Below, one piece after another: positions 1,738-20,000 of a stretch of DNA of 20,000 nucleotides. The DNA is from an uncultured virus (IMG/VR IMGVR_UViG_3300042691_048340) (lineage: Duplodnaviria > Heunggongvirae > Uroviricota > Caudoviricetes): the IMG/VR virus record IMGVR_UViG_3300042691_048340. The stretch is one strand, 5' to 3'. The notes under the pieces were generated by a model. The model ran no database searches, was not told the origin of the DNA, and was given only the letters and a program-made list of their open reading frames with translations. Within the stretch, counting starts at the first letter, position 1. The number at the start of each line of letters is the position of its first letter. Made by a program: the position numbers and the translations under genes.

Positions 1738-1773
1738 ATATGCCCCTCATATGTTTTCAGTAAAAACTAGAAC

Positions 1774-1782
1774 ATTATATCA
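1774..1782 (-). promoter_or_regulatory. Extended -10 promoter (TGaTATAAT) for the leftward hypothetical/helicase operon
   Basis: The + strand attatatca reads TG-A-TATAAT on the minus strand, about 40 nt upstream of the 1737 start codon. Confidence 0.55.
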
Positions 1783-1840
1783 TTTTTTTCTAAAAATAAT
1801 AGAATGCCAGTCCTGGAAACATCTATTCTCACCTTAAGTA

Positions 1841-1873
1841 TTGATATCACTTGAGGACGTGCGTAATATACGC
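1841..1873 (+). promoter_or_regulatory. Sigma70-like promoter for the giant TMP gene, with an overlapping palindrome
   Basis: TTGATA (1841-1846), a 17-nt spacer, then TAATAT (1864-1869). The inverted repeat GCGTA-ata-TACGC (1861-1873) overlaps the -10. An AGGTGG RBS lies at 1900-1905 before ATG 1912. Confidence 0.45.
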
Positions 1874-1911
1874 TAATACAGTGAAAATAGGCTCTTAGCA
1901 GGTGGAAAAAT

Positions 1912-4900
1912 ATGAGTACAGATAGCACGATGGTTGTCAGTATCAAGTTTATAGCTGATACGGGTGATGCAACAAAAGCGAACAATGAGTTAATCGAGTC
2001 TCTAAAAAGTATAGCCGAGTCTATCAGAGGTACAGCAAACCGTGCCGCAAGTGCATCTACTGCAGCCGTTAGCGGTGCTAAAGAAGCAACAAGCGCATAT
2101 AAGCAAACTGCCGAAGAAGTTAAAAAACAAGGCGGCTTACTGAGTGGTATAAGAGAAAAAATCGCGGAAGTAAATAAGAGTTTAAAAGAGTTTGGTGAAA
2201 GTATTGCAAACAAAATCAAATCTTTAAAGGATTTAGCGTTGGGCTTTAATGCTCTCAAAGAGGCTGCATCTACGTTCCTAGATCCGCTTGCAGAAGCACT
2301 TGAAAAAGTTATCGATCAAGGCATCGAGTTTAGTGCTCAGATGCAAAAAATCATGACGATATCTTTCAGGGGCTTAGACACGTTAAAGGCTGGCCCCGGC
2401 ATGGAAGCGACGAAAGATATGAAGATAGACTTGGACTCGTTTAAGCTACAAATGAGTGACTTCTACCGTGAGTTAGCAGTTAGTCGCGGTCGTAACGCTG
2501 ATATAGTAGCCGAGGCTGGGGAAAATCTGGCCCGCGCGGGCTTTAATGCGGTTGAAAATATGAAGATTCTTCCGTCGTTGATGGACTTGACAACGGCTAG
2601 TGGAGCACAGTTGGGCCAAGTTAGCGAAGTTGTAGCAAATAACATGCGAGCACTTGGGTATGCTGCATCAGAGGCTGGGAAGCTTACTGATATGTTTGCG
2701 AAAACCACCTTCATTTCTAACACAAAAATACACGACTTGGAGGACTCTCTTAAGTACATTGCGCCCGTGTGGCGCTCTGCAGGACATTCTACGCACGAAC
2801 TTCTGGGCTCACTAGCCCTACTAGCTGACTTGGGGACGAAAGGTAGTCAAGCTGGTACTTCACTTCGCCAAGCACTGCTCCGCCTTGCTATCGAACCCAA
2901 GAGAACTGAACAGGGTATGAAAGCACTAGGGGTATCGATAGAAGAGTTGGGCGCTAAGGACATGGAACACTTAAAACACCAACTGTCTGATGCCGCCGCC
3001 GCCATGAAAGAAATAGGAGTTGAGACCGAAACTTTAGGTAAGGATGGGAAGCGGCAAGTCAAACCCTTTATCGATCTCATGGAAGAGATGGAAGAGAAGC
3101 TCTCAAAAATGGGGACGGGCTACGACAAGATTGGACTCATTGGACGTATCTTTGGTACTGAGCCGTCCTCAGCCATGCTTGACCTCATCGTTAACGCTAA
3201 AAAAGTTACAACAACGGATAAGCAAACAGGCAAAAGTACGACGTCATCTACGCTACGAAGTATGATAGAACAGATAGACGTAGCACAAAAGGAACATACT
3301 TCCAAAAACACTGCACTGATGATGTCAGATACGTTGGAAGGCGACTTAAGGCGCTTTAAAGCGGCATCCATGGATATGGGACTTACGTTCTACTATGCCG
3401 TTGAAAAAATGTTTCGGCAAATAACACAAACTGCCACAAGCACTGTTAAGGGCATACTTGTTTTTCTAAAGACCGCTGGCAGCGGCATAGCCGACGCCTT
3501 TTACCCACTTATTGTCGCCGTACAAGAAGCATTCGGCCCACTCATGGATAGCTTAGGGGACTTTTTCCATAAAACGCCGGGTAAGGCAACTATGGCATTT
3601 GGCAGCGCGACAGAAGCTGCTAAGTTTTTTGGCCAAGTTGTTGGCCAACTTGCTACCCTTGTTCTCACCCCCCTTATAGAGGGGTTTAAACTAGTATCCG
3701 TAGTATTAACTCCCACTGTAACTGCATTTGTAGGTGTTGGCAAAGCGATAGGGGAGACTGTGGGTGAGGTGAGTATGCGCTTTGGTCAACTCACCGAAGC
3801 CGGGTCTAAACTGTCAGGTTTCAGTGCGTTTTTGCAAGCTACTCGAGATAGTGTCGGCGGGTTTCGTGATGCATTAAATCAGTCATGGGCAGGACTAGGA
3901 GATGTACTTGCCGCTCCTTTTGAATTTTTCACAAGTGGCTTTGAGGCTGGAATTATCAGTGGATTGAGTAACTTAGGGGGTGCTATATCAGATATTGTTT
4001 TTGGTATCATCACTATGGCACTGAGCCCCCTCAAACTCGCTATCCCCGCTGACTGGGTCGACGGTGCAATCAGCGGTTTAAATACTCTCAAGTCCTCCCT
4101 TGAACCCATCACCCCGTTGCTAGGGGGATTGGCCGTTGCCGCTGGACTCGCATTCCTACCCCTGCTAAACCCTCTCCCTGTTATATTGGCAGGAATGCAG
4201 GGTTTAAAGGCATGGATAACGTCCATTAATGCAAGCTTAACAGCAACTAGTGTTTCGGCAGGCTTGGCATCGGGTGCTTTAACAAAGTTACAAGTAGCTG
4301 CCAATTTGGCAGGTGCAGCTTTCGCCGGTTGGTCTGTAGGAACTTACTTATGGAACCAGTTTGAACTGGTTAGAGTTGCCGGCTATGAAGCAGTTAGTGT
4401 GTTTTTGGAAGGCTTTGAAAACTTAAAATATGCTACGCAAGTCTTTACTGTTAGCGCAGCTATCTACTTTAGCGAGCTAAGAGACAGTTATAGCGGTGTC
4501 ATGACCGATATCTTTTCGGTCAGTACAGTACTACTTGGAAACTTAAACAAGGGCTGGCTATATATGAGTAGCTCGTTTGCTAGTGTTATGCAAACTATGC
4601 AAGGAGTATGGCAGTCGTTTGTGGCGTACTTATATGAGAAGTTGGCTAGTATAGTTGATAAGCTGGCAGGTCTGACGGGAAGCGTGGACTTTCTCCCGGG
4701 TATGGGCGATATGTCTTCCAAGTTGCAAGGTTTCTCGATGAGTTTAGGTATAGCTGCAACACAAGCTAAAGCAGCAACACTTGCAACGGTTGACTACAAC
4801 GAAGAGTATAAGAAGCAAGTACAAAGCATCGATAGTGCAGTTGAGTCTCAACTGGAAAGTATCGCCGCCAGTACTAAAGCTGGGGCGGCCAATGAGCAGT

Positions 4901-7900
4901 TGGCTAAAAGCTTAGCCACTGCCGCTGATGAGCGAGAACGCAACATAAAGCTTATAAAAGAAAGTCGTGCTGAGTTAGTTAAAGAAGCGGCATCACCAGT
5001 TACTCCTCAACGTCCTAAAGCTATAACGTATGGCTCGGAACTAGATGTCTACCAACACCTTCCCCATCATACCGAAAGCGAAGGGGATATAAATGCAAAG
5101 CAGCTTATAGCCGACCAAAAAGCCAAGGACATGGCTGCTAAAAAAGCAGTAGCAGATGCAAGAAAAGAGGCACTGCGAGAAGAAAAAAACGAGTACCGGG
5201 ACCATGCGAAAGAACTGACTGATATTGCACAAAAACAAGCTGAGTCCATAAAAGACGCTGCCAAAAGTCAGAGTGACTTTATAAAACAAAGTGCAGAGTC
5301 GCAAGTGGAGTCGCTAAAGTCCTTATCTGAACGTATGAAACAGGCAGCTAAAGAAGCCAAAGAAGTTGCCGATAAGCTAAAAAAGGACTATGACGAACTC
5401 ACTAAGCTACGTAGTGAACTCGGTGCGTCCGGTTTAAGTGAGCGTGAGAAAACGGTATATGCTGCCCACACATCGGAACAAGGTACTAACTACGGAGCTG
5501 TCATAGCGCAAAGTAAAATGCTTACTTCTGCTAACCAAGAGCTAACCAAAGCAAAAGAAGAGCTAACAAAGGCAACGCTATCGGAAACAGACGCCAAGTT
5601 GTTTGACCTCCAGTTAAAGTACCCAGATGCCATAGCGGCCGAAATCTTTCAGATGCAGGAGTTAGCTAAACAAAAGAAAGCGTCTGTCGACTTAAACAAG
5701 CAACTTGAGGGGGCTAGTCTTAGCTCAAAGCAAAACGAGTACGTAGAACTTATGCGTAAAGTTGGTGTGGAAGAAGCGTCTCGTTATGTCCGTCAAAAGC
5801 AGCTCATAGATCAACAAACTGAGTTAAAGTCTAAGGCGGAGTCTTACTGGAGCATGGCCAGCGACAAAGCCGCTGAGTACTTTGAAAAGTTTCGCAGTGG
5901 GCAACTCTCCGCAAAAGAGAGTCTAAAAGGTTTCTTTAGCGATATGGCTAAGGAACAGCAAAAGGCTGCTATGGACACTGCTAAAAAGCAGTTTTTAGGT
6001 TTATTTGGCTTAGATAGTGGGGCTAACAAAGAAGCTCAAGTACAAAAAGACTTGAACAAGGCGGCTTCTTTTTTGGCGGACTCAAATAAGTCAGTTGTTA
6101 ATGCCTCTAAGGATGCATCCGGGACTATAGCCAAGGCTATAGTTGATGCCGGTGAAAGACTAAGTGGTGTAGTAAGTCGTTTGGGAACTGATGTTAGCAA
6201 GGCTTTTTCTGACACTAAGTCGCTAGAAGTTGGGGCTGACATGATAAGCAAACACGCCGAAAGCTTAAAGAGTGCAGCCGATAAACAGGCCGAGGCTATA
6301 CGCGAGTCGGCTGACAAACAAGCCGAAGCAATACGTGATGCTGCAAGGGAACAGGCTGATGCACTAAAACAAGAAGCCCGCGACGTGGGTCATAAGGGTG
6401 CGCCAGAAACAACTCACACTTCTGGTGCGACGTCCGAAGTAGCAAAGTCTAGTAAAGAGCTAGTGTCCGCTAACCAGAAGTACGTCAAGGTCACGGATGA
6501 GGTAGCCTCTGCACTAGAGGGGGCTGCCAAAAAGTTTAACTATAGCCTTCTTGAGTTAAGCCGCATGGCATCTTTGGAGTCTGCATTTGATGCCAATATA
6601 AAGAATTTTTCTGGATACATGGGCTTGTTTCAGTTTAAAGGCGCAGCCTCAAAAGAGGTTGGAATAAGTGGTAAGGAGTATGACCCCAAGGCGGCGGCTG
6701 AAGGAGCTATCAAATACTGGGAAATAAATAAAAAAATACTGGATAAATTTAGCAAAGACTGGCGTGAAACTGCCGAAAAAATGAACATCAACGAGGGGTT
6801 GATGGCGTGGATGGCTCATAACCAGGGGGCTGGCGGCCTGAGTCAAGTTCTTAAAACGCTAACAACCGGCGTAAACCAACTTAGTAGTGACGTTACGCGA
6901 AATATCAAAAACAACTTAGTTGGAGGGGCTGGAAAGGAACTTAGTGGGGTTGCACTAGCTGAAAGGTACATGGAGGGTTGGATAGCTAAATGGAATAATT
7001 TACCTCTCCCTTCCCAGTTCAAAGACGACTTTCAGAGTGAGGTCGGCAAAGGTGTCATAGAACTTACGGCAAAAGCGAGCGAGGAGTCTAGCAAAGTTGT
7101 TGCTAAAACAATGAGTTCTAGTCCAGTTGATAAAGGCACTATATTGGAAGATAGTACACTTGACGTACTGTCCGAAACAACTAATAAGTACATCCAAAAA
7201 GGTGTGTCTTACGAGTTGGGTGCAAAAAACATCGAACTAGGGAAGATAGACTGCAGCGGTTGGGTCAACTTACTCACGAAAACGGCTTTTGAAAATATCA
7301 ACAAACAGACTGGACAAGTGGTGTTTGATAACTCTGACATGAAGCTACTTCAAAACTCCAGCCATAACATCATCCAAAGTATAGTAGATAAGACCGGCGT
7401 GTTGCTCGATAGTCGTAAAACGAGTAACTTTAAAGGACAGCTAAAAGAAGGCATGATGATAGGACTTGACAAGGGAGATCACGGTTGGGACAGTGGGCGG
7501 GTGCGAGCGGGAAGTGACGTCGATAGAAACATCGACCACATCGTGCAGGTAACAGTGGATAAGCTTAGCGGAAAACTAGGCATCTCAGAGTCTCGTAGTG
7601 TCCGGCAAAATGGTGAACAAAGAGGGGGTGTTACATGGACTGAACTGGATAAGTGGTTGAGCCAAAATAAGAAAGCAACCATGTTTGCTACCGAGCCTTT
7701 CAAGCTTGCCGCTAAAGATATCCAAAAAGCCTTCTCTGAAGTATCGGTGGCTGCCAAAAGTCAAGTCGGTGCGATAGCATCCCAAAAACAGGCTACCGCT
7801 GCCTCAACAGAAGCGGCTAAGGCGCAAGTCACAGCTCAACAAGAGTTGGCTGAAGTCGAGGCAACTCTAAGTGCAACAAAGCTATCTACGGCGGCTTCTC

Positions 7901-10900
7901 ATGAACAGGCTATGGCTGCAGTAGAGGCAGCACGAAGGACTAGCATGACACAAGACGCTACTGCTATAGCAGAGCACGCTTCCAGTACTCAAGTAGCAGG
8001 AAAGGGTATCGTTTTAGTGGCTGAGCAGGCTACAAACGAAGTAGCTAGTGTGGCACAACAAGCCAAGGAAGGTGTGGCACAAGCTACCACTCGGTGCATA
8101 AGCGAAAGTACTACTAGTGAGGGGGGAGGGGTAAGCAAAAACACGTTTGGTGGCATACTCAACTTTTTTAAAGGAGGCGACGATAAGGGTGGTGGTGGAT
8201 TTTTATCGTCTATAACAAAGGGACTCAGTAGCTTTTTTAAAGGAGGAAAGGAGGGAGGTGATAAGCCTAGTGGCGTACTTTCATCCATCGGCACTTTTTT
8301 AAGTGGCGAAGGCAACTTGACGGGTAAGCTACAAAAAAGTTTAGGGGGGTTGTTGGGAGGGAAAGGCATGAGTGAACTTACGTCTAGCCTAAGTAGCCTT
8401 ACTGGCTCTATGGGTTCTTTTGGGAAAGGTATAAGTACGTTGTTGGGAGGTGGTTCCACGCCCGGCATGAGTGCCCTCTCGTCCGTGACTTCACTTTTGG
8501 CTGGCGATATGGCCGGGGCTGCCAGCGGAGCTGCCCAGTTACTAGGCTCCATGACTCCTTTAGGGCCACTCGGAGGAATGATAGCTGGCCAGCTAACGTC
8601 TATGCTTGGTATAGGGGCTAAGTGGGTACGTGAGGCCGAGTGGGTAGAAGTTTCCATGAAAGGTATGTCGGCTTCTTTTGGTAAAGGCTATAAGGAAGTC
8701 AAAAAAGGACTGCTTGGCGGCTCCAAAATGGGTCATGAGTCACTGGATGATGCCAGCGTTAAGAAGCTAAGTGACATGTTGGGAGAGACTAAAAAGTCCA
8801 TAGAAGCCGTAAGTGCCTCGCTAGGTATGGACAAAAACGGTCTCTTAGGGAAGATGGAGAACTTTCGTTACCATATCGCTGCTATGGAAAACAAAGGCTC
8901 CGAGTGGTTTGATAAAGCTTTTGAGAAGATGCGTGTCATGATGGTTAAGTCGGCGGTTGATAACATCATGATTGCGGGCGAAGACATCAAAACAAACCTT
9001 GGTGGGGGCTTTAAAAACACGTTTAAACAAGTTTTAGATGGTACGTTTAACGAAGTTGCAAGAGCGGAAACTTGGGACGGAGTCCTAACCAAGTTTGTTG
9101 CGAGCGCGGACAGCGCAGTTAAAGGTGGGTTACAAGATGACGTATCTGGCAAGCTAGGAGAGCGTCTAACTGACTTTGTAAACGCTTCCGCTGAACAGAT
9201 AAAGACTATGCCAGTGGATGAGTTGCAAAACGTCCTCACGGGCGAAATAGGCAAGATATTTACCGACATAACCGGCGTTGCCATACCCGAGTCGATAACC
9301 GGTGAGTTAGCAAGCGTGTTTGCAACCCGAGTCCAGGATGCTGTTAAACTTGCCGCTGGAGAAGATGTGGCGGGTAAAACGGTTATAAAAGATACTGGGG
9401 AGGTAAACTTTTATAAGACGTTGAAGTCAATGGTGGCTAGCTTTGAGGGAACGGAACAGGAACTTAGCGCGTTTGTTGGGAAGATGATGGAAACGAAAGA
9501 TATTTTTAAACAAACCGGCCTTAGTATGGGCGTATTTTCCGAGTCTATGGTTACCAGTTTTGGTGATATGGATAGATTTAGCGCGTCTTTAGGCTTCTTT
9601 AAAGAAAATTTTGCAACAGTGTCAACCACTAATATCGAATTTGCCAATAGCCTAGCCACTCTAAATGCTTCTTTAAAACAGGTACAGTTGCAAGCCTTGC
9701 CAGGCGTTAACACCGCGTTTCCTAAAACACGTGAGGAGTTCTTTAAGCTTGCCCAGTCTGTTTCTGAGCTTGGAAAAGATGGTGAAGCAACGTTTAGCAC
9801 GCTCCTTAAAGGAGGTCCTCAGTTTGCCAGCTACTACAAGGCTATCGAGGAGTTTAATCAAAAGTTTGGTAGTGCGACTGGCAACTCTCTTAAAGTGCAG
9901 GCCAAGAACACATCTGAACTTACCCAACTGCTAAACGACTCCTTTAAAAACCTAGGCTTAGAGGTGCCTAAGACCCGTAAGGAGTTGTTTGAACTGGTTC
10001 AGGGCTTTGACTTAACAAACAACTCACAACGCAAGTTACATGACTCTATACTTGAGCTAGCTCCCGCGCTTGATGGCTTGTACATCAACTCGGAACAAGT
10101 AGACAAGTTTAGAGAGTCTATGCAAAGTATCTACGATACTTCTGGAACTACTGAAAAGACTCTAGTAAACCTGAGTAAAGAGTTTCCCAACCTAAGCTTA
10201 GGGGCTGGTGTGCTCACGCTAAATGCTAAAGAAGCGGCGCGGCAACTTGCAAGCATGTCAACTAGCGAACTCATGACATGGGCTGAAAATATGGGCATGG
10301 TTGGACTTTCTATAGAAACCATAACACAAAAGACTTCAGAGTACCTGGGTGCAGTGGCTGAACTACAGGACAAGATGTTTAGCAACATCAACGCTGACTC
10401 GTTGGGCGGAGATCTGATGAAGGTGCTTACGGACGCTAACGTTGGTTCCGCTGCAGAAGCGGGGAGAATGTTTGCAGCCAACTTCACCAACCAGTTTTAC
10501 AACCAACTGGTTGGCACCGTCCTGAATGGTGTCATGCAAACAGTGTACGAGGGAATCGTAAGTCCGTTCTTGTCTTCTTCAGCACAAGCAGCTCTAAATA
10601 TGACTGAAGGAGGTGCTATGGCGGGGGCTAATCTTGCGCAAGGTGGCAACATATCTGCTAGTAGTACAGCCGCTGGTGGGAGTATGGCTGGAACGGCTAT
10701 GGCAAGTGGCGGAATGCTTGCTGGTGACGCCCTGGCTAAAATAGTAAGTGAGGCCGTTGATAAAGTGAAGATGATGGGTCAAATAATGAACGACCCGGCA
10801 ATGAAAGAAGCTTTAAATACTTTGACGGGTGGACTACAAACAGTTGGTGAAGCCGCCTTCAATGCCACTCCTCAACTTAGAAGCGAAGTCAGGACTGATG

Positions 10901-13900
10901 TTAGCCAAAGTAGTAGTCCCACTAGCCAAACCGGCTATGAGGACTCAAGTCGTCGCACAATAGAACCGGATGTAAGTAGAGATGAAAGTAGGGAAATTCT
11001 TAAGGAAGTAAATGAGGATGTGAAAAATAGTAGAGAAGAGCTAGTCAAGTTGATGTCAGACTTTACAAAAAGCTTAAGTGAACTTAGTAGCGGCTTAGAA
11101 GGGAACGCTAAAGTACTTGCTGAACTACGAACTACTTACCGTGACACGACGTCTACGCAACTACTGGCCAGTAGCTCTTCCGCTGATATGATACAACAGC
11201 TAAAAGCTCTTTCACAAAACCAACTTGAAGATATGGCTGCTGCCGCCGGCGTCGAAGTATCCAAACTAACGAGTGACTTACTTGGGCTTGTTGATATGAC
11301 AAAACAGTCTGAAAAGACCATGAGTGAGTTTAGGGAAAAGATGGGGGAAATAGCGGGAACAGAACCAAAATCAAAGAAACTCTCTGAGTTACATGACAAA
11401 ACTATTGGGGCGCTTAGTGAGTCTAGTATCAGTAAGTTACGTGAAAAACTGAGTGCTCAACAAACGGAAGTTTCTTCCTTAGCCTCTAAGCAGAAAAGCG
11501 TAAAGTCTGATGCCGAAAAGAGTATCGTGGAGCTAGTAGAAAGCAGTAGAGAGTCCAGCTTTCTTTACCTTAAGAGTCTCAAGAAACAACAAGGAGGTAA
11601 GCTGTCTAGTAAGTCGCAACGCGAACTTGAAGAGTATAACCACGAAGCTTATGCTACTCGTGTTGCTCAACTCGATAGTTTAAATAAAGCCACTCAAGCC
11701 TCTATTACAACACTAACCGCCGAAATTGCGGTTAAAGAGGCTGGTATCGCTGCTACTAAAGTTAGTATCTCAACACTTGAAAGTGTGGCAGCCACTTTCG
11801 CTGACACATCTGCAACTTCAGCAGAGTTGGCAACTTCACTTGCTAGTATGGATGACTCAACACTTAAGACGCTAGCGGATAGCTTAGGCGTAACTGTTGA
11901 GCAGTTTACCAGCAATACCGAAGAGTATATCAACCTTCTTAAGGCGCGAGAAGAGAGTGTTAAGTCAGTTCGCGACTCCTTACAAGAGTTTGCTAGCCCT
12001 GAAAAAACAGGAAAACAGCAAGTGCTAAATGAGTTAGGCTCAGTGTTTGCAGACTTAGGCCTGGCAGCTAAAGCAATGACGCTAGATACGAAAGAGGCTG
12101 CTAAAGCAATGCTATCAATGCCAGATGAGAAGCTCATTGCTTTCGCAGAACAGTACTCCTTAACTACCGACCAACTAAAAGAAAAAACAACAGCTTACTT
12201 CGGAGCTGTAAATGAGCTACAACAAGGCATGGATACATGGCGTGGCAAGATGGAGCAACTTGTTACAAGCGAGTCTGATGCTAGCTTAAGTACTAAGAAT
12301 TTGGCACAAAAAAGCCCATACTTAAGCGAGCTTACGCAAGGCATGGACTCTAAAGCTATGGCAAAAATGTTTAGTGGCTTGGATAGTGCCAAACTCGAAC
12401 AACTAGCCGCAAAGTATGGTGTCAGCCTCGAAAAATTTGAGGCTGACACGGAGCTGTGGGTAAGTAGTACAAAGGCTATAGAAGAAGATACCAAGGCTGC
12501 GGCGCAAAGCTTTATAGGCTTTAGGGACAGCCTGCTACTAACGAGTGGCTCACTGACTGAAAATGAGATAACTTTAAGGAACTTGGCTACCAAGTATCCA
12601 ATGTTGTCCTCTACCATCAACGACTTTTCCCTTACTGCCAAGGAAGCCGCTGAACGCTTCAATGCCTTATCGGATGACGAGCTAAAAGCACTTGCCTCGT
12701 CACTGAAAGTAGACTTAGACACGCTCAAAACCGATGCTGGAACATGGTTGGGAGTGGTGAAGAGTCAAGACGAAATGTTAAAGGAAAACACCAAGTCTAT
12801 TAAAGACTTTCAAGCTAGTATGCGTAAAACGGCTGAGGTTGCTAGTGAGTCTAGCATAACACTGGAGGAGTTGACTGCTAAGTACCCAGAACTGTCCTTA
12901 ACTATCAACAACTCATCACAGACAGCCAAGGAAGCCGCAAGCCGCTTTGCAAGCATGGATATAGACTCTCTTATGAGTCAGTTAAGTGTTTCCCCAGAAA
13001 AACGCTCTGAGTTTTTAGCCGATGCCCAAGCCTGGGTCGGAGCTTTAGCCGCCAACGACGAGGCAATCAAAACCAATAAGGAGGCAATGTCAAGTTATAC
13101 GGATACCATGTTAAAGGCAACGGGAACGTATGGGGAGAATGATATTGCGCTTAAAAATCTGACCGCCGCTTACCCGCTTATGGCAAGCACGATAAACGAC
13201 TCGTCCATAACTGCTAAAAATGCAGCTACTTACTTTGCTAGTTTGAGTGACACAGAATTTGACTTGCTAGCCAAGTCGCTGAACAAGAGCACAGAAGAAC
13301 TGCGCACAAATAGCACCGAGTGGGTGACTGCTATGGCTGCCAACGAAGAGTTATTTAACACGTTTCATGGGAAGATGCTAAAGCTCAAAGAAGGCATGAG
13401 TGACAACGCCGCCGTACTAGAGGAACTTAAAGCAAAGTATCCTGCTTTAGCTGTCTCCTTGTCAAAAACGGGAGTAACCGCCCAAGAAGTTAGTAACTAC
13501 TTTGAAAGTATGAATATGCAGCAAGTTTCTGACTTGGCCAAGTCTCTACATGTTAGTACGGAGACACTAGTAGCCGATGTAGATAGTTACATAGGCGTGT
13601 TGAGTGCCCAAACCGAGGAGTTAAAGGCTCAAACTGAAAAACTCTCCTCTTTCAAAGAAGAAATGTCTAAGTTTGGTATCACAGCCTCAGAAGCGGAGTT
13701 GGCTACGAGTAAGCTTTCTGAGCAGTTCCCAGAGTTGCTTGTAAGTATGCAGTCGCTTGGTGGTAACTCTAAGGAGGTAGCTGCTAAACTAGCCAAACTA
13801 GACGACAAACAACTACTTAGTATGGCAACAGCTAGCAAAGTAAGTACGGATAAGTTTTTAGAGAGCGCTACTAGCTATGTTACTAGTCTCGCGGCGCAAG

Positions 13901-16900
13901 AAGAGGAAACGAAAGCCGCTATAAGTAGTGTGCAGGGGATGCAAGCTGAGTTTAAAAAACTTGCTAGTGGGGTAAGCGATGCTCAATATACTGTAGACAA
14001 CTTAACAGCCAAGTACCCACACTTACTCCAAAGTATGGGACTTACTGGAAAGTCGGCGGATGATGTAGCCAAAAAGCTAGCAGGCATGAGTCCTGAAAAG
14101 CTCGTAAACATCGCTAAAGGTCTGGGGGTTTCTACTGATACTTTTGTGGGGGAAATAACTGGCTATGTAAGCGCTCTGAAGACGTTAGGTGATGAGGCTA
14201 AAGCTATGACTGACTCTTTAAACTCCTTTAAAGGGGAGATGGATAAGCTGGGCTCGTCGCTTACTGACAACGAGTACACACTCAACAGTGTTACAAAGAG
14301 CTTTCCACAGCTTACGGCAAACCTGAGTAGCCTTGGTTCTACATCTCAAAGTATAGCAAAGTCTTTGGCTGGTATGAGTACTGGACAACTGAGTGCAATG
14401 GCTAAACAAGCGGGAGTGTCAGTTGACGAGTTTACTAGTAACAGTAAGGCTTACATCGATGCTATGAAAGTAAGGGAGGAAAGCATCAAACAAAGTCAGG
14501 AACAGGCGCTACAGGACGCTAAGGAAAACCAGGATAAGTTGATGCAAACAATCGATAACTACTTCACTACTTTCACTCAACTAAGCGATAAGCTTGCTGG
14601 TGTTTCAAACAACTTAGCTAAGGACATATCCGCTTATGATACTGAAGAACAAAAGCTAGAAAAGCGTCGTAACCGCATGTCAGAACTAGAGTCTAGTATC
14701 AACTCGCTTAACTCCTTTGGACTCGATAACGAGAAGGCAGTATCTAAGACTATCGAGGACTTAGATGAATATCGTGGCCTAATACTTGAGGAAACCGAGC
14801 AAAAGATAGAGTTAGTTAAAAAGGAGCAAGAAGCTGCCCAGAAGGCGCATGATGATACCATAGCCGCCTTGAAAGAAAGTCTCTCTAAAGTACAAGGAGT
14901 CATATCTTCTGTATCGAGTGACATTGAGCGGCTAAATGAGGAGTTAAAACAAGGTCAGTCTAAAACTACTGCTCGTGATACTTTGAAAACAACGTTCACG
15001 AAGTCGCTAACAGACTCAACTAAGACAACGAATGAAAGGATTGACTTAGCCTCTCAGTACCGGGAGGCTATAGGGAACGCACTTCAAGAACAGCTAACGG
15101 CTCTCGATAAGAGTAGAGATGAGGCAATTGCCAACCTCGAAAAAGAGCGTGACGCTAAGATCAAACACTTTGAGGAAGTGCAGGATGCCGCGAAAAAGCT
15201 CCAAGAGTCGGTGACTAAACTTAGAGAGTCGATAAGTTCGATGAGGCAGTCCATACAAGCTGATATGGAAAACTTGGCAAAGGATATGGGCTTACCAGGG
15301 ACAACAGCGACTGAAAAACTTATGGCACTGCAAAACCAAGTTAGTGCCAATATGCCAGCCAGTGAAGATAGTATTAAGAAACTAGAGACTTACAAAGCCC
15401 TCGTCATGGAGTCTCTTGCTGAACAAATTGATAAGGAAAACAAACGTTTTGAGGAAGTTAAAAAGACTCAAGACGCTCAACGTGAGCACTACAAAAAGCT
15501 TATTGACTTTTCCAAAGAGTTAAAAGGTTTTGTCGATAACTTAAAGCTCGGGGATATGAGCTACTATAACCCACAACGCCGCTTAGAAGAGGCGAAACGT
15601 CAATATACTCAAGTACTTGCGTTAGCTAAAAGTGGTGATGAACAAGCTATGAGCGAGGTTACGGGAAAAGCTCAGGCCTATTTAAAAGAAGCCCAAACTT
15701 TCTATGCATCATCGGATGACTACACGAAGATATTTGACGACATAAACGCAAGTATGGAGGGCATGAAGCTTACCGCCGAAAGTGAAGCAAAAAAGATTGC
15801 TCAAAACTTGCCTTTGGATGAAACAGAGACCGCAAAAAATATCGCCAGTATTGTTCCCTTACAGCAAGCGGCTATGGAAAAGCTAAAGTCTGTAGACGCT
15901 CTCTTGGCATCAATGGATACTACCCTACAGAACCCGAGTGCCTCACCCATGCCGGACGAGCAGTTTAACAGCATGTTAGACTCCGAAAAGCAAAACTTTG
16001 ATAAGCTCATCGAGGCTCAAAAACAGAGTAGTGTTGATACTGGAAACAAGCTTAGAGAAGCCGCCAAGTCCGAGCTACAAACGCTAAATAGCTCCCTACT
16101 AAACCTCCAAACCGGCTTAGAGGAAAGTAGTAGTGCCAAGTTCGATGATACCGTTTTTGCAAATCAAATCACCGGTTTGCAACAAGCGTCTGTACAACAA
16201 CTCATGGAGCTAGGCCAATATATCATCGCAATGGATGCGGGCGTGAAAGATAGTTTGAGTCAAAACGTAGGTGCGTTGATGAGCCAACTTTCTCCAGAAA
16301 ATCAAGAAAAAGTGGCAGTTCAACTCGATGAGGCTATGCAAAGAAATATCACGGGCCCACTCAGGGAACTTATAGCTGCCGTTAAGGGAGAAAAAGTCAA
16401 CTCGGAAATCAAGTCTAAAGAGAAAGGTTTTAGCAACAACCAGACCGCTATTGACAATGCCTTAACCGCCTTTGCATCTTTTCGCGAGTTTGCCACAAAA
16501 AACAGTCTCAACGCCTCCTTTGAAGAGGTAGTTGATAAGCTTATTCCCTACATCAACAACACGTCAACTAACATGGAGGGTATAGCTAACGTTATGCGGG
16601 AACAGTTTAAGGTTACCTCAACTGAAGGACTTGGTAGCGTGATAAATCAAGTACTAAAAGACCGCAAAGACACTGCTTGGGAAAGCTTTTGGCCTAACTT
16701 CAGGGATGGTTACTTACAAACAAACAAAGAGTTACTTACTGCTTTTCAGGCTAAGCAAGATGACAAAAAGGCCATAGACCTCGCCACGTATCGTGAGTTA
16801 AATCTAGCTATCACTGGGCTTACGACTGGACTATCACAGCTTGGTTCCGCTACAGTCAATAAAGGTCGTACGGAGGCGGAACTATACGGTGCTATAGATA

Positions 16901-18081
16901 AACGTCCGACACAAGAGTGGATGACTGCAAAAGGAGTAGGCGTTAACATAGAGACTTACGAAGGTTTTCTAAAAGCCAAGGAAACACTAGATGCCTTAAA
17001 GAAAAGCCTTCTTGGTATCACCAGTTTAAAGGGTGAACTAGATGGTTTTAATGTCAAGTTAGCTGACACGAAAACTAGTTTCCAAGCCATTCCCAAGCTA
17101 GATATAGCCACTAACATAGCCGCTACAGTGCCAGTAAAAACGGCCAGTATTCATGACTATGTTGCGCAACTATCTCCACTGTCAGCAAGTACTACCAACC
17201 CCACTGCTAAGCCTGCTAGTACCGGTATCACTATCGGGGGGAATGTATCGACTAGTGGTGCTAAAGACATCGTTGTTAAGCTAGATGACTTGTTTGTTCA
17301 GTGGAAAGACCTAGCCAAAACATACCGAGACGAAGATATAAAAAACAGTGAAAAGTTAGATAAAGAGGCTATGGAACGGACGCTTAAGTGGCGGGACGAG
17401 GAGGCTAAGGCCAACTTAGCTGCAACTGAGCTAAAAACTCAACGCTGGTTAGCGTGGAGGACTGAGGAGGCTCTTTGGCGAAAAGAGGATGTAGCCACGC
17501 TAGCTTCACGTGACACTACTGCGCTTGCATGGCGAGAAGAGGATAAAAGTACCCTTCTTGCATGGCGGGTTGAAGATATTGCTTTTCAACAACTAAAGGA
17601 GGAGTCAGAGAAGCTTTGGTTTGAAAACATGCTCACTGCTATAAAGTCGATCCAAGTAACTGTCACGTTACCGACAAGCGCGTTACCGACAAGCGAAGAC
17701 AGGAGTGACTCTGTTGCTGGACTGGAGAAAAACAAGCCTAGTTTTGACGTTGGCAGTTCCTATGTTGAAAAGGACATGGCAGCTAAAGTCCATAAGGGGG
17801 AGATCATAATTGACTCGCAGTCCGCCGGCATACTTAGAAACTACGGTATACGACTGCAAACTAGGAGCGAGCAAGAGGAAAAAGCTACTACTACTGCTAG
17901 TAGTAAGCGTGTCGAAGAACTCTTAGCCGCACTGTTAGTAGAGTTAAAGATAAGTAACAGAAATAGTGATACGAGGGAGGCGCGTATCGTAGAAGCGGTG
18001 AATAACATGGAAAACACCATTGCTGCGCCTGTTGTTTCGGCTATAAAAAAAGGACAACAACCGACCATCATGCGCAAGTAG
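1912..18081 (+). CDS. Giant phage tail tape measure protein (TP901-type core) with internal lytic transglycosylase-like and NlpC/P60-like domains
   Basis: 5389-aa Ala/Ser/Lys/Glu-rich helical protein. N-terminal TP901/PhageMin_Tail core: AEAGENLARAGF...DLEDSLKYIAPV...LADLGTKGSQAGTSLRQALLRL...IFGTE...DTLEGDL (~2430-3380). Hydrophobic segments at ~3500-4450. PKTRxE repeats at 9721 and 9967. Motif LKLGDMSYYNPQRRLEEAKRQY..AKSGD at ~15540. C-terminal PSFDVGSSYVEKDMAAKVHKGEIII at 17737. Confidence 0.92.
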   Translation: MSTDSTMVVSIKFIADTGDATKANNELIESLKSIAESIRGTANRAASASTAAVSGAKEATSAYKQTAEEVKKQGGLLSGIREKIAEVNKSLKEFGESIANKIKSLKDLALGFNALKEAASTFLDPLAEALEKVIDQGIEFSAQMQKIMTISFRGLDTLKAGPGMEATKDMKIDLDSFKLQMSDFYRELAVSRGRNADIVAEAGENLARAGFNAVENMKILPSLMDLTTASGAQLGQVSEVVANNMRALGYAASEAGKLTDMFAKTTFISNTKIHDLEDSLKYIAPVWRSAGHSTHELLGSLALLADLGTKGSQAGTSLRQALLRLAIEPKRTEQGMKALGVSIEELGAKDMEHLKHQLSDAAAAMKEIGVETETLGKDGKRQVKPFIDLMEEMEEKLSKMGTGYDKIGLIGRIFGTEPSSAMLDLIVNAKKVTTTDKQTGKSTTSSTLRSMIEQIDVAQKEHTSKNTALMMSDTLEGDLRRFKAASMDMGLTFYYAVEKMFRQITQTATSTVKGILVFLKTAGSGIADAFYPLIVAVQEAFGPLMDSLGDFFHKTPGKATMAFGSATEAAKFFGQVVGQLATLVLTPLIEGFKLVSVVLTPTVTAFVGVGKAIGETVGEVSMRFGQLTEAGSKLSGFSAFLQATRDSVGGFRDALNQSWAGLGDVLAAPFEFFTSGFEAGIISGLSNLGGAISDIVFGIITMALSPLKLAIPADWVDGAISGLNTLKSSLEPITPLLGGLAVAAGLAFLPLLNPLPVILAGMQGLKAWITSINASLTATSVSAGLASGALTKLQVAANLAGAAFAGWSVGTYLWNQFELVRVAGYEAVSVFLEGFENLKYATQVFTVSAAIYFSELRDSYSGVMTDIFSVSTVLLGNLNKGWLYMSSSFASVMQTMQGVWQSFVAYLYEKLASIVDKLAGLTGSVDFLPGMGDMSSKLQGFSMSLGIAATQAKAATLATVDYNEEYKKQVQSIDSAVESQLESIAASTKAGAANEQLAKSLATAADERERNIKLIKESRAELVKEAASPVTPQRPKAITYGSELDVYQHLPHHTESEGDINAKQLIADQKAKDMAAKKAVADARKEALREEKNEYRDHAKELTDIAQKQAESIKDAAKSQSDFIKQSAESQVESLKSLSERMKQAAKEAKEVADKLKKDYDELTKLRSELGASGLSEREKTVYAAHTSEQGTNYGAVIAQSKMLTSANQELTKAKEELTKATLSETDAKLFDLQLKYPDAIAAEIFQMQELAKQKKASVDLNKQLEGASLSSKQNEYVELMRKVGVEEASRYVRQKQLIDQQTELKSKAESYWSMASDKAAEYFEKFRSGQLSAKESLKGFFSDMAKEQQKAAMDTAKKQFLGLFGLDSGANKEAQVQKDLNKAASFLADSNKSVVNASKDASGTIAKAIVDAGERLSGVVSRLGTDVSKAFSDTKSLEVGADMISKHAESLKSAADKQAEAIRESADKQAEAIRDAAREQADALKQEARDVGHKGAPETTHTSGATSEVAKSSKELVSANQKYVKVTDEVASALEGAAKKFNYSLLELSRMASLESAFDANIKNFSGYMGLFQFKGAASKEVGISGKEYDPKAAAEGAIKYWEINKKILDKFSKDWRETAEKMNINEGLMAWMAHNQGAGGLSQVLKTLTTGVNQLSSDVTRNIKNNLVGGAGKELSGVALAERYMEGWIAKWNNLPLPSQFKDDFQSEVGKGVIELTAKASEESSKVVAKTMSSSPVDKGTILEDSTLDVLSETTNKYIQKGVSYELGAKNIELGKIDCSGWVNLLTKTAFENINKQTGQVVFDNSDMKLLQNSSHNIIQSIVDKTGVLLDSRKTSNFKGQLKEGMMIGLDKGDHGWDSGRVRAGSDVDRNIDHIVQVTVDKLSGKLGISESRSVRQNGEQRGGVTWTELDKWLSQNKKATMFATEPFKLAAKDIQKAFSEVSVAAKSQVGAIASQKQATAASTEAAKAQVTAQQELAEVEATLSATKLSTAASHEQAMAAVEAARRTSMTQDATAIAEHASSTQVAGKGIVLVAEQATNEVASVAQQAKEGVAQATTRCISESTTSEGGGVSKNTFGGILNFFKGGDDKGGGGFLSSITKGLSSFFKGGKEGGDKPSGVLSSIGTFLSGEGNLTGKLQKSLGGLLGGKGMSELTSSLSSLTGSMGSFGKGISTLLGGGSTPGMSALSSVTSLLAGDMAGAASGAAQLLGSMTPLGPLGGMIAGQLTSMLGIGAKWVREAEWVEVSMKGMSASFGKGYKEVKKGLLGGSKMGHESLDDASVKKLSDMLGETKKSIEAVSASLGMDKNGLLGKMENFRYHIAAMENKGSEWFDKAFEKMRVMMVKSAVDNIMIAGEDIKTNLGGGFKNTFKQVLDGTFNEVARAETWDGVLTKFVASADSAVKGGLQDDVSGKLGERLTDFVNASAEQIKTMPVDELQNVLTGEIGKIFTDITGVAIPESITGELASVFATRVQDAVKLAAGEDVAGKTVIKDTGEVNFYKTLKSMVASFEGTEQELSAFVGKMMETKDIFKQTGLSMGVFSESMVTSFGDMDRFSASLGFFKENFATVSTTNIEFANSLATLNASLKQVQLQALPGVNTAFPKTREEFFKLAQSVSELGKDGEATFSTLLKGGPQFASYYKAIEEFNQKFGSATGNSLKVQAKNTSELTQLLNDSFKNLGLEVPKTRKELFELVQGFDLTNNSQRKLHDSILELAPALDGLYINSEQVDKFRESMQSIYDTSGTTEKTLVNLSKEFPNLSLGAGVLTLNAKEAARQLASMSTSELMTWAENMGMVGLSIETITQKTSEYLGAVAELQDKMFSNINADSLGGDLMKVLTDANVGSAAEAGRMFAANFTNQFYNQLVGTVLNGVMQTVYEGIVSPFLSSSAQAALNMTEGGAMAGANLAQGGNISASSTAAGGSMAGTAMASGGMLAGDALAKIVSEAVDKVKMMGQIMNDPAMKEALNTLTGGLQTVGEAAFNATPQLRSEVRTDVSQSSSPTSQTGYEDSSRRTIEPDVSRDESREILKEVNEDVKNSREELVKLMSDFTKSLSELSSGLEGNAKVLAELRTTYRDTTSTQLLASSSSADMIQQLKALSQNQLEDMAAAAGVEVSKLTSDLLGLVDMTKQSEKTMSEFREKMGEIAGTEPKSKKLSELHDKTIGALSESSISKLREKLSAQQTEVSSLASKQKSVKSDAEKSIVELVESSRESSFLYLKSLKKQQGGKLSSKSQRELEEYNHEAYATRVAQLDSLNKATQASITTLTAEIAVKEAGIAATKVSISTLESVAATFADTSATSAELATSLASMDDSTLKTLADSLGVTVEQFTSNTEEYINLLKAREESVKSVRDSLQEFASPEKTGKQQVLNELGSVFADLGLAAKAMTLDTKEAAKAMLSMPDEKLIAFAEQYSLTTDQLKEKTTAYFGAVNELQQGMDTWRGKMEQLVTSESDASLSTKNLAQKSPYLSELTQGMDSKAMAKMFSGLDSAKLEQLAAKYGVSLEKFEADTELWVSSTKAIEEDTKAAAQSFIGFRDSLLLTSGSLTENEITLRNLATKYPMLSSTINDFSLTAKEAAERFNALSDDELKALASSLKVDLDTLKTDAGTWLGVVKSQDEMLKENTKSIKDFQASMRKTAEVASESSITLEELTAKYPELSLTINNSSQTAKEAASRFASMDIDSLMSQLSVSPEKRSEFLADAQAWVGALAANDEAIKTNKEAMSSYTDTMLKATGTYGENDIALKNLTAAYPLMASTINDSSITAKNAATYFASLSDTEFDLLAKSLNKSTEELRTNSTEWVTAMAANEELFNTFHGKMLKLKEGMSDNAAVLEELKAKYPALAVSLSKTGVTAQEVSNYFESMNMQQVSDLAKSLHVSTETLVADVDSYIGVLSAQTEELKAQTEKLSSFKEEMSKFGITASEAELATSKLSEQFPELLVSMQSLGGNSKEVAAKLAKLDDKQLLSMATASKVSTDKFLESATSYVTSLAAQEEETKAAISSVQGMQAEFKKLASGVSDAQYTVDNLTAKYPHLLQSMGLTGKSADDVAKKLAGMSPEKLVNIAKGLGVSTDTFVGEITGYVSALKTLGDEAKAMTDSLNSFKGEMDKLGSSLTDNEYTLNSVTKSFPQLTANLSSLGSTSQSIAKSLAGMSTGQLSAMAKQAGVSVDEFTSNSKAYIDAMKVREESIKQSQEQALQDAKENQDKLMQTIDNYFTTFTQLSDKLAGVSNNLAKDISAYDTEEQKLEKRRNRMSELESSINSLNSFGLDNEKAVSKTIEDLDEYRGLILEETEQKIELVKKEQEAAQKAHDDTIAALKESLSKVQGVISSVSSDIERLNEELKQGQSKTTARDTLKTTFTKSLTDSTKTTNERIDLASQYREAIGNALQEQLTALDKSRDEAIANLEKERDAKIKHFEEVQDAAKKLQESVTKLRESISSMRQSIQADMENLAKDMGLPGTTATEKLMALQNQVSANMPASEDSIKKLETYKALVMESLAEQIDKENKRFEEVKKTQDAQREHYKKLIDFSKELKGFVDNLKLGDMSYYNPQRRLEEAKRQYTQVLALAKSGDEQAMSEVTGKAQAYLKEAQTFYASSDDYTKIFDDINASMEGMKLTAESEAKKIAQNLPLDETETAKNIASIVPLQQAAMEKLKSVDALLASMDTTLQNPSASPMPDEQFNSMLDSEKQNFDKLIEAQKQSSVDTGNKLREAAKSELQTLNSSLLNLQTGLEESSSAKFDDTVFANQITGLQQASVQQLMELGQYIIAMDAGVKDSLSQNVGALMSQLSPENQEKVAVQLDEAMQRNITGPLRELIAAVKGEKVNSEIKSKEKGFSNNQTAIDNALTAFASFREFATKNSLNASFEEVVDKLIPYINNTSTNMEGIANVMREQFKVTSTEGLGSVINQVLKDRKDTAWESFWPNFRDGYLQTNKELLTAFQAKQDDKKAIDLATYRELNLAITGLTTGLSQLGSATVNKGRTEAELYGAIDKRPTQEWMTAKGVGVNIETYEGFLKAKETLDALKKSLLGITSLKGELDGFNVKLADTKTSFQAIPKLDIATNIAATVPVKTASIHDYVAQLSPLSASTTNPTAKPASTGITIGGNVSTSGAKDIVVKLDDLFVQWKDLAKTYRDEDIKNSEKLDKEAMERTLKWRDEEAKANLAATELKTQRWLAWRTEEALWRKEDVATLASRDTTALAWREEDKSTLLAWRVEDIAFQQLKEESEKLWFENMLTAIKSIQVTVTLPTSALPTSEDRSDSVAGLEKNKPSFDVGSSYVEKDMAAKVHKGEIIIDSQSAGILRNYGIRLQTRSEQEEKATTTASSKRVEELLAALLVELKISNRNSDTREARIVEAVNNMENTIAAPVVSAIKKGQQPTIMRK
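6256..6380 (+). repeat. 11-aa (33-nt) tandem repeat in the TMP
   Basis: AESLKSAADKQ AEAIRESADKQ AEAIRDAAREQ ADALKQEA. A related copy, AESIKDAAKSQ SDFIKQSAESQ, lies at ~5239-5310. Confidence 0.8.
6481..7000 (+). other. SLT/lysozyme-like lytic transglycosylase domain within the TMP
   Basis: ALEGAAKKFNYS..LSRMASLES (putative catalytic Glu, codon 6577, residue 1556), GYMGLFQF, YDPKAAAEGAIKY and AWMAHNQGAGG match the ES / GLxQ / A(Y/H)NxG motifs of the SLT family. Confidence 0.85.
7186..7660 (+). other. NlpC/P60-like (papain-fold) cysteine peptidase domain within the TMP
   Basis: YELGAK...IDCSGWV (Cys, codon 7252, residue 1781), LKEGMMI, IDHIVQV (His, codon 7537, residue 1876) and GISES (Glu, codon 7588) follow the NlpC/P60 YxxG..DCSG..H..E arrangement. 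Confidence 0.72.
11790..14480 (+). repeat. Tandem protein repeats of about 96 aa in the TMP
   Basis: Recurring unit L-x2-K-(Y/F)-P-x-L...AKEAA..(F/L)A.(M/L)...L..LA...(G)VS...F......(W/Y). Anchor codons lie at 12043, 12310, 12592, 12880, 13168, 13435, 13723, 14011 and 14299, with spacings of 267, 282, 288, 288, 267, 288, 288 and 288 nt. Confidence 0.85.
17666..17695 (+). repeat. Perfect 15-bp tandem duplication (in frame)
   Basis: cgttaccgacaagcg occurs twice in tandem and encodes LPTSA-LPTSE. Confidence 0.9.
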
Positions 18082-18172
18082 CACATGTCTAAGTTCCAAA
18101 GCACCAACTAGTAAAAACAAAAGGTTAGGAAAGGGGGTAAGGTACCAGGGGCTAGGATGCCTATGTCTATCG

Positions 18173-18384
18173 CCCCACATCCTATATATCCTCTACGCAC
18201 CGGGAAAGCTTCGTATCTAAAGGTTAGAGTAGGGTGTGTAGGGTGTGTATATACTATACTAGTATATATACTATATATGATATGATATATATAGCGAGTA
18301 AACTACCAAGACTACCTACCACACCCTCCACAACCTAGATATGGGGCGGGTTTCCCAGTGTAGTTGGGGGGTGGGGATGTAGGG
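18173..18384. repeat. Long imperfect inverted repeat with an AT-rich palindromic core (candidate replication origin)
   Basis: Arm pairs: ccccacatcc (18173) / ggatgtaggg (18375); gggaaa (18202) / tttccc (18351); tatcta (18214) / tagata (18336); agggtgtg (18231) / cacaccct (18320). All are centred at ~18278-18279. The core 18247-18294 is mostly TA with overlapping palindromes. Confidence 0.7.
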
Positions 18385-18447
18385 TAGGCAAAACATCAAC
18401 AAGTTTTAGTCCAAGAACGCTAAGCAACTTGACTAAGTGTGCCACTG

Positions 18448-18473
18448 AACTACTGTCAAAGTTGTCAGTAGTT
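18448..18473. promoter_or_regulatory. Near-perfect 26-bp palindrome (protein-binding site or terminator hairpin)
   Basis: aactactg-t-caa-ag-ttg-t-cagtagtt, lying between the convergent TMP and ruvA 3' ends. Confidence 0.4.
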
Positions 18474-18586
18474 TTAGAGATAAACTTGCCAGTGCCAACC
18501 CAGTCCTTAGTTAAGATATTGACTTTGAAGCCATGTCAGTGCCGCCACTTCAGTGGCCTTCCTTAAGTAAGACCGAGTCAGTTGCC

Positions 18587-19998: not shown

Positions 19999-20000
19999 GA

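Follow-up and report, generated by a model that had tools for sequence, protein, structure and literature searches.

The stretch of DNA analysed here (20,000 nt from an uncultured virus; the window) is dominated by a single, uninterrupted 16-kb open frame (1912–18081, plus strand) that encodes a tape measure protein (TMP) of 5,389 amino acids and corresponds to approximately 20% of an 82.5-kb genome. Upstream, a 174-nt spacer (1738–1911) separates the gene from a divergent helicase unit, as described in an earlier note on this DNA, which comprises a 121-amino-acid ORF (1372–1737, minus strand; no family found in Pfam-, TIGRFAM- and PHROG-type profile searches) followed by a PIF1-like SF1B helicase of 421 amino acids (117–1382, minus strand; PF05970, E = 1e-31). 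Both genes are conserved in two related phages, G002 and G003: the ORF has orthologues in the matching position (28–31% identity), and the helicase orthologues (55% identity in G002 and 61% in G003) are likewise divergent from TMP. The spacer contains putative promoters, a 15-nt hairpin (1773–1806) and the ribosome-binding site noted previously, that is, an SD-like AGGTGG (1900–1905) 6 nt before the ATG, the counterpart of which in G003 is AGGTG 7 nt before the ATG. The sequence-predicted TMP promoter of the same note did not hold up, as the spacer has 2 sigma-70-like sites against 1.5 ± 1.3 in shuffled sequences (that is, not above chance); it is the orientation of the genes that points to a promoter here.

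Amino acids 193–415 of the protein (2488–3156; plus strand, as for all TMP features) form a PhageMin_Tail/TP901-type TMP domain (PF10145, 115 bits against a cut-off of 33.2; TIGR01760 and the PHROG TMP family phrog_1533 also match), and an N-terminal domain of this type on a long, mostly helical protein is what identifies a siphovirus TMP. Further along lies an SLT lytic transglycosylase domain (6520–6852; amino acids 1537–1647; PF01464, 26.6 bits against a curated cut-off of 21.3), in which Glu1556, presumably the catalytic residue, belongs to an ES motif that is invariant in the TMPs of all three phages. It is followed by a domain (7141–7740; amino acids 1744–1943) with no Pfam match in that region, whose structure model (pLDDT 89) has the papain-like fold of NlpC/P60 peptidoglycan peptidases (against 7cfl, VIA Z 13.7, rmsd 2.2, 127 aligned residues) and whose Cys1781 and His1876 do not vary across all 25 sequences aligned; Foldseek returned nothing at E ≤ 0.001 (the best match was MepS, 1.5e-3), and the Atlas score of 0.81 is a lead only. 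The hydrolase region had no match among 50,697 phage records, and protein P0073 was left out of the Pfam profile search owing to its length. On the basis of profile and model, the TMP contains SLT and NlpC/P60 cell-wall hydrolase domains that would be expected to cut peptidoglycan; only approximately 430 amino acids are recognizably enzymatic. Amino acids 2364–5389 contain no Pfam domain above cut-off and weakly match SMC-like coiled coils; degenerate helical repeats with a period of approximately 89/96 amino acids and KYPxL-type motifs occupy 12592–14013, and the motif count rises with TMP length (5 here, 8 in G003 and 9 in G002). A variant, P0006, differs by an in-frame 19-amino-acid duplication. 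Another protein, P0004 (E = 1e-7, 3% coverage), has the TMP domain alone in common and was set aside for this reason.

Downstream, a non-coding spacer of 505 nt (18082–18586) marks a lost junction between TMP and the tail-tip hub gene (see below). The earlier note described approximately 500 bp of non-coding inverted repeats; the spacer is indeed present and carries one arm of a dispersed element, but the repeats are short and imperfect (five pairs of up to 20 nt, with 70% for the longest pair, from about nine tenths of the spacer and with no shuffle control). The arm (18187–18223; 37 nt) matches contig L033 (11115–11151; 86%, E = 1e-6), in which a second copy of the element occupies the RNR/clamp spacer of the same phage, and aligns with arms in G002 and G003. 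In a motif scan, for which the motif was derived from the very sequences counted, the element recurs at module borders. A recombinase that would act on the element was not found, Rfam gave no match on L033, L001 and L016, and most repeat families across the whole window are due to chance or to coding sequence. Between the TMP stop and the next gene there is no terminator-like site (a scan of 17900–19300 gave one site, beyond ruvA, with 1.2 expected). That gene, the convergent ruvA reported earlier (18587–18994, minus strand), has phage-like codon use and encodes RuvA domains I–II only; as its 135 amino acids cover positions 1–134 of the 202-position TIGR00084, the product lacks the C-terminal domain. 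The same form is found on 15 contigs; tblastn gave no match in G002 or G003, and a pattern search found no viral contig. That ruvA marks a prophage edge or a site of integration is unlikely given its codons, the recurrence of this form and the lack of an integrase in the relatives. The window ends within a Type ISP restriction-modification gene, of which it includes the C-terminal part (19234–20000, minus strand; PF18135); this gene varies between assemblies (all 70 differences between the window and contig L023 lie beyond 19600) and has foreign codon use (CTA/Leu 0 against 0.12–0.35 in core genes).

Contigs that extend the window show that TMP is an orphan only locally: no tail gene adjoins it in the window, as the earlier note stated, but 6.7 kb upstream there is a second tail-tube copy, in deleted form, and the end of the tube/chaperone operon is 14.0 kb upstream. 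Contig L003 is identical to window positions 1–4954 and overlaps L026 at 99.98% over 4,019 nt; together they encode protease, decoration protein, capsid, gp36, neck, terminator, tube, two chaperones, portal and MuF, with capsid, neck, tube, G/GT chaperones and portal 11–22 kb upstream of TMP (a portal search of genome contigs gave no locus). The tube is Phage_tube_2-like by Atlas (feature score 0.95, TM 0.70/0.90), with no match in Pfam, PHROG and PDB sequence searches, and in all three phages the chaperone ORFs are joined at a −1 slippery site, where the −1 frame is open and conserved. Contig L033 carries the terminase, the tail-tip hub and the first part of a Dit-like gene; the best matches of the hub model (pLDDT 53) are the tail-tip proteins of DT57C, T5 and lambda (E = 7e-8). 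Approximately 54 of the 82.5 kb are tiled in this way and some 28 kb are unseen, for which scans returned relatives only, and L033 and L026 do not overlap. For each of capsid, tube, ruvA, TMP and hub (P0042), the longest contig measures 82,480 nt, as it does for the contig of L023. This shared length indirectly places the hub on the same phage; its distance from TMP is estimated at approximately 34 kb, on the opposite strand. Capsid, terminase, tube and chaperones are all encoded beyond the window, and all structural genes seen are full-length compared with those of the relatives. The sheath family PF04984 was absent from five records, three of them fragments and two more than 90% complete (control, 3 of 14), and the VirB4 family was absent from the same number, again including three fragments.

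The two relatives (G002, 83.4 kb; G003, 81.4 kb with a 145-nt terminal repeat at 99%) are full phages with TMPs of 7,676 and 7,052 amino acids, the latter 51% identical to the window TMP over 3,403 amino acids; G460 is a fourth phage, near G002, and G005 matches G002 at 99.996% identity. In both near-complete relatives, the tube/chaperone operon is 27–31 kb from TMP and the divergent PIF1 unit adjoins it, whereas TMP, hub and Dit (and a fibre gene in some cases) are in tandem, with the hub starting 140 and 309 nt past the TMP stop. The PIF1 unit and tube separation are shared, so that a TMP apart from the tube operon characterizes the family as a whole, and only the split between TMP and hub, absent from the other two of the three genomes, is specific to the window lineage. 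The usual head and tail genes lie elsewhere on the genome, and both relatives also have TMP far from the tube operon; these findings largely undo the case for an undescribed system; what is still unusual is the size of the TMP and the loss of TMP–hub adjacency in one of three genomes.

In the lambda-type tail module, the order is tube, G/GT chaperones with a −1 frameshift, TMP and tip proteins. The window phage shares its E/D-type head, Phage_tube_2-like tube, frameshifted chaperones, terminator, TMP and T5 pb3/lambda J-like hub (indirectly placed), but portal and MuF occupy the usual place of TMP after the chaperones, and both neighbours are distant (14 kb to the chaperones, against 27–31 kb in the relatives, and ~34 kb to the hub). 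This order is, we infer, usual rather than required for function. A hub of the same family (phrog_8917, 25% identity) is found in Azospirillum phage Cd (gp47–gp48; CU468217.1), in which it overlaps the end of a 1,462-amino-acid TMP, an adjacency that is absent from the window phage.

Taken together, we suggest that the window very probably contains the ordinary, functional TMP of a complete, long-tailed, presumably non-contractile phage of approximately 82 kb with shuffled, separately transcribed modules. TMP would be transcribed alone from the divergent spacer and would act in trans with the tube, chaperone pair, neck/terminator and hub encoded elsewhere. Chaperone coating, docking on the tip and tube growth along TMP are established for lambda-like tails, and here too the chaperones may coat TMP, the end of which would dock on the tip before the tube polymerizes along it. 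At infection, TMP may be released into the envelope, where SLT would cut glycan strands and NlpC/P60 would cut peptide stems. The lost TMP–hub adjacency would then represent a rearrangement in the window lineage, possibly through recombination at the dispersed inverted-repeat elements.

The earlier note also proposed a satellite that lends its own TMP to the tail of a helper phage. Such a precedent is described in the PLE satellites of Vibrio cholerae, in which TMP works away from the main tail operon; PLE11 contributes TMP, TAC and hub of its own to chimeric tails, and tube, sheath and baseplate parts come from ICP1 (PMC12987554). The window alone, with no tail gene beside TMP, could be read in this way. 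The window phage, however, supplies its own tail parts as well as capsid, portal, terminase and neck on a genome of ~82 kb, and both near-complete relatives are complete phages; this explanation therefore fails and is exceedingly unlikely. A TMP that has been converted into a separate protein for envelope penetration or DNA transfer, in a contractile injection system or in conjugation, would accord with the two hydrolase domains, with the secreted peptidoglycan-binding proteins among the kin of the NlpC domain and with an FtsK-like membrane ATPase in the relatives, but is just as improbable in view of the full tail set, the conserved chaperone frameshift, the orthologues directly 5′ of hub in the relatives and the lack of sheath and VirB4 in the five records mentioned above. 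Decay of the phage, with its tail module broken by rearrangement, might be suspected from the truncated ruvA, the deleted tube copy and the fragmented neighbourhood; we consider it highly improbable given the intact 16-kb frame, a TMP variant that itself remains in frame, the full-length structural genes and the presence of the sequence in runs from 2019 and from 2024–2025. A chimeric assembly at one junction is similarly improbable. The window is a metagenomic contig whose junctions are known from assemblies rather than reads, and the contig of L023 runs for 451 nt past the window before it stops inside the variable Type ISP gene; yet L003 has the same sequence at the left junction, which is conserved in both relatives, the right one shows no difference over 8970–19600 in the separate assembly L023, and ruvA has the codon use of the phage. 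Moreover, at least 83% of the words of 1200–9000 occur in 20 of 24 listed runs (a word share, not contiguity), and 10 of these 20, from seven studies, carry no flag as a possible source. No RNA run is among those listed, which speaks neither for nor against transcription.

Accepting an ordinary TMP, its size suggests an unusually long tail, and ruler scaling would give 0.75–0.86 µm for this phage and as much as 1.2 µm for the relatives. The Thermus siphoviruses P23-45 and P74-26 have TMPs of 5,002 amino acids with a fused enzyme and tails of more than 800 nm, the longest described (PMC10770324, PMC10034513 and PMC9022992); the present TMPs are longer (5,389–7,676 amino acids) and carry SLT and NlpC/P60 rather than RNA polymerase, and a literature search for larger TMPs returned no paper. 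It is quite conceivable, although we lean against it, that the TMP is a normal virion protein consisting largely of folded cargo or a membrane channel, so that the tail falls far below the ruler prediction, a view compatible with the explanation preferred above that contests tail length only. In its favour are the two globular hydrolase domains, the folded RNA polymerase within the P23-45 TMP (PMC10770324) and the extra 1,700–2,300 amino acids of the relatives, most of which fall in a hydrophobic N-terminal part with 12–15 TM-like segments against 3 here. Against it are the short enzymatic portion, the remainder with its weak match to coiled coils and repeats that climb in number with length.

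The phage is from freshwater and its host probably belongs to the Beggiatoales. The capsid was found in none of 55 genomes of this candidate order, the same genomes yielded no CRISPR-spacer-like match among the five candidates scored per genome, and the Type ISP gene is a weak host marker (Ca. Parabeggiatoa, 64%; Poribacteria, 62%). Jumbo phages have genomes of more than 200 kb, and the longest contigs of this family measure 82,480, 82,144, 81,363, 81,245 and 83,384 nt; of the earlier suggestion of a jumbo phage or phage-plasmid with dispersed structural genes, the dispersed phage stands, possibly as a phage-plasmid, and the jumbo phage does not. Phage-plasmids of the P1, SSU5 and N15 type offer a comparison: in G002, an actin-like protein is encoded next to a small basic ORF, FtsK and a D5 primase are present as well, and G003 and G460 carry orthologues; integrase PF00589 was detected in neither relative (nor recombinase PF00239 in five records), and G003 has its terminal repeat. 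This likeness is known from genes of the relatives, and the ParM identity of the actin-like protein is weak (PF21522 scores below its cut-off, E = 0.0014, and PDB gave nothing at E < 0.1).

A bolder composite scenario, which we put forward as doubtful, is that these phages constitute an undescribed temperate family of ~82 kb, probably phage-plasmids, whose hosts would be filamentous sulfur bacteria of fresh water (Beggiatoales) and which might devote 20–28% of the genome to one TMP and make tails of 0.75–1.2 µm, beyond any described tail found, perhaps to reach cells through sheath or slime. In the same scenario, the TMP gene might be a free module, moved by recombination between dispersed, origin-like inverted-repeat elements. 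If the host assignment is true, these would be candidate viruses of giant sulfur bacteria, for which a literature search at listing level showed none described.

In summary, a lone TMP gene, apart from chaperone and tip genes, can occur in an apparently intact phage, and one window with such a gene is unsafe ground for calling a satellite. The TMPs of 5,389, 7,052 and 7,676 amino acids in three related phages would provide a natural series for the ruler rule past 1 µm.

The giant gene of the window is a single open frame at 1912-18081 that encodes 5,389 aa and is assigned as a tape measure protein (TMP) by PF10145, TIGR01760 and PHROG families. Its setting is as the earlier note described: a divergent unit, made up of a 121-aa ORF and a gene for a PIF1-like helicase, lies 174 nt upstream, and on the 3′ side come a 505-nt spacer, ruvA (135 aa, convergent) and then a fragment of a Type ISP gene. 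The left junction (PIF1–TMP side) recurs in the overlapping contig L003 and in two related genomes, G002 (83,384 nt; TMP of 7,676 aa) and G003 (81,363 nt with a 145-nt terminal repeat; TMP of 7,052 aa), and at the right junction window 8970-19600 is identical in a different assembly. Of the promoter and ribosome-binding site attributed to the TMP, the latter is plausible from sequence, but the promoter scan returned 2 sites upstream against 1.5 ± 1.3 by chance, that is, chance level. As the terminator scan also found no terminator-like site directly 3′ of the gene, the proposed stand-alone transcription unit follows from gene orientation only. The ruvA (window 18587-18994) encodes a phage-borne RuvA limited to domains I–II, with an identical protein on 15 contigs and no match found in G002 or G003; we speculate that the truncated protein could bind Holliday junctions on its own, with no RuvB, or hinder the RuvAB of the host. 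The specificity region of the Type ISP gene (window 19234-20000; L023:10265-11479) shows 70 differences between two assemblies, the 10.6 kb before it being identical, and its target-recognition segment has possibly been swapped. The window phage contains CTAG at 4.4-5.2 per kb, roughly double the 1.9-3.0 per kb of G002 and G003.

That no tail genes adjoin the TMP is true locally, but overlapping contigs carry the tube and chaperone genes upstream, with 14.0 kb between the end of the chaperone ORFs and the TMP start. Window 1-4954 is 100% identical in L003, which reaches 14.4 kb further upstream, and L026 overlaps L003 at 99.98% and adds 5.3 kb; in all, the tiling covered ~54 of 82.5 kb. These two contigs encode a protease, decoration protein, capsid, Mu gp36-like adaptor, neck and terminator, then a 499-aa tube, two chaperone ORFs, portal and MuF. 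The tube protein has no Pfam match and is Phage_tube_2-like (Atlas), and in all three phages a conserved slippery sequence, with the −1 frame open, links the chaperone ORFs, which is the lambda G/GT arrangement. Portal and MuF come after the chaperones, in the place normally taken by the TMP. A second tail-tube gene (L003:8666-9622; 318 aa), 6.7 kb upstream of the TMP start, is internally deleted and without the inserted domain of the main tube gene, to which it corresponds in blocks of 155 and 164 nt at 99-100% and, in the 3′ half, at 78%; G002 and G003 have one tube gene each. All three phages carry a sigma-54 activator-like gene (L003:5162-7581; G002 31958-33226; G003 46943-48301), whose neighbour in the window phage is a radical SAM gene, KamA-like and foreign in its codon use.

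The tail-tip hub was reached with a relative’s post-TMP protein as query, which gave 5 protein matches among 8,000 candidates. The hub protein P0042 is encoded on L031/L033, 3′ of terminase and a small lipoprotein gene and 5′ of a Dit-like gene, and its model (pLDDT 53) best matches the tail-tip proteins of DT57C, T5 and lambda. For P0042 (as cluster member), TMP, capsid, tube and ruvA alike, the longest contig measures 82,480 nt, and L023, which matches the right half of the window, sits on a contig of that length. L033 and L026 do not overlap; the estimated position of a Cas-like operon on L033 implies a gap of ~0.7 kb, and the estimated L033 position would put the hub on the strand opposite to the TMP, ~34 kb upstream of its start; should the genome be circular at 82.5 kb, the distance the other way would be ~30 kb. 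In Azospirillum phage Cd, by contrast, a P0042-family protein sits directly 3′ of the TMP. The L033 ORFs at 6214-10353 match a putative type IV-B-like Cas operon with QueC and a TGT-like gene, and have no orthologues in G002 or G003. A B12-dependent ribonucleotide reductase (RNR) and a cobalamin adenosyltransferase occur in all three phages (L033:11338-13886; G002 33778-36403; G003 62744-65348).

The TMP itself contains an SLT domain (aa 1537-1647) adjoined by an NlpC/P60-fold domain (aa 1744-1943; pLDDT 89, Z 13.7), whose Cys and His are shared by all 25 aligned sequences (24 of 63 search hits went into the alignment). In the relatives this cassette retains 78-81% identity, against 29-51% for long whole-protein alignments, and a different muramidase (PF21277) is found in more distant family members (two of seven long relatives scanned). 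For the middle region, 61 relatives were found among 50% clusters; 12 have E ≤ 1e-30, and several are 3,500-5,300 aa long. The P23-45 TMP has 5,002 aa (PMC10770324) and its tail exceeds 800 nm (PMC9022992), and the tail of P74-26, at nearly 1 µm, is called the longest known (PMC10034513). Scaling from P23-45 predicts tails of 862, 1,128 and 1,228 nm for the window phage, G003 and G002. With 430 aa subtracted and a rise of 0.15 nm taken per remaining residue, the predictions become 744, 993 and 1,087 nm; the extra TMP length in the relatives is largely hydrophobic, which counts against long-tail scaling.

G002 carries three copies (75-82% identity) of a ~260-nt non-coding inverted-repeat element: one follows the D5 primase, one lies in the RNR/clamp spacer and one is close upstream of the TMP (6785-7047, 36827-37081, 79357-79619). 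Of the related copies in G003, one likewise follows the primase, another occupies the RNR/clamp spacer and the third separates portal from MuF (30178-30373, 67169-67448, 49747-49862). In the window phage, the RNR/clamp spacer (L033 10955-11155) holds an AT-rich core between two 22-nt arms, and 37 nt of it match the post-TMP spacer at 86% (E 1e-6). The arms are alignable across the three phages, and a motif derived from them, which makes the counts circular by construction, matched three places in G002, three in G003, two in L033 and one in the window (shuffles ≤0.2), and none in L026, L003, L134 or the window’s right end. The elements (~200-260 nt, with an AT-rich core) lie at module borders, one copy being beside the D5 primase in both relatives; they may be origin-like, given the copy abutting the primase, and may mediate module shuffling. 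Near the G002 primase, four ~88-nt tandem non-coding repeats (6100-6434) form an iteron-like array.

With regard to the host, the two best matches of the phage RuvA, G032 and G007 (the latter the chosen centre of the genome sampling), belong to the order of Ca. Parabeggiatoa (Beggiatoales), within which the best match reaches 164 bits at 61-62% identity; 300 genomes of the class were sampled, 252 were scored at E ≤ 1e-30, and G151, G306 and G049 (flagged unpublished) served as background only. G247, also of this order, ranks low (48%). A recently acquired AAA ATPase of the phage is 82% identical (78% in DNA) to that of an order member, and reaches 67% at best across the class (400 genomes, four candidates scored per genome); none of 55 genomes of the order yielded the capsid. 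We consider Beggiatoales the probable host. Scans of five phage records for sheath, VirB4 and serine resolvase families, and of the two relatives for tyrosine integrase, gave no hit, and the actin-like protein, FtsK and D5 primase encoded by the relatives suggest, for these relatives alone, a plasmid-like prophage. An FtsK-like membrane ATPase gene diverges from the actin-like gene and a small ORF (G002 12071-16553; G003 37952-42429; L140), with LprI-domain and lysozyme genes 3′ of them, a candidate segregation and lysis block.

The hydrolase-region scan yielded two loci, those of G002 and G003, both full phages. In each, the same small ORF and PIF1 are likewise divergent from the TMP, across spacers of 1,608 and 3,817 nt. 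The separation from the tube/chaperone operon is shared as well, at 27-31 kb. Other blocks are reordered: RNR–cobA is upstream of the head operon in two of the three phages (not G002), and the lipoprotein gene is 3′ of PIF1 in G003 and 5′ of the hub in the window phage. The hub follows the TMP in both relatives, 140 nt on in G003 and 309 nt on in G002 with a 92-aa ORF between. Our literature search, which took in little of the subscription journals, returned no description of this phage family or of such a TMP split. The undescribed system suspected in the earlier note gives way to a complete siphovirus, with head, neck, tube, chaperones, terminase and hub elsewhere, in which a giant, doubly hydrolytic TMP gene stands alone as a real, rather unusual variant. 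As the TMP is away from the tube operon in both relatives and other blocks are reordered, dispersal is a trait of the family and, judged by gene order, only the TMP–hub split is particular to the window-phage lineage (one of three phages).
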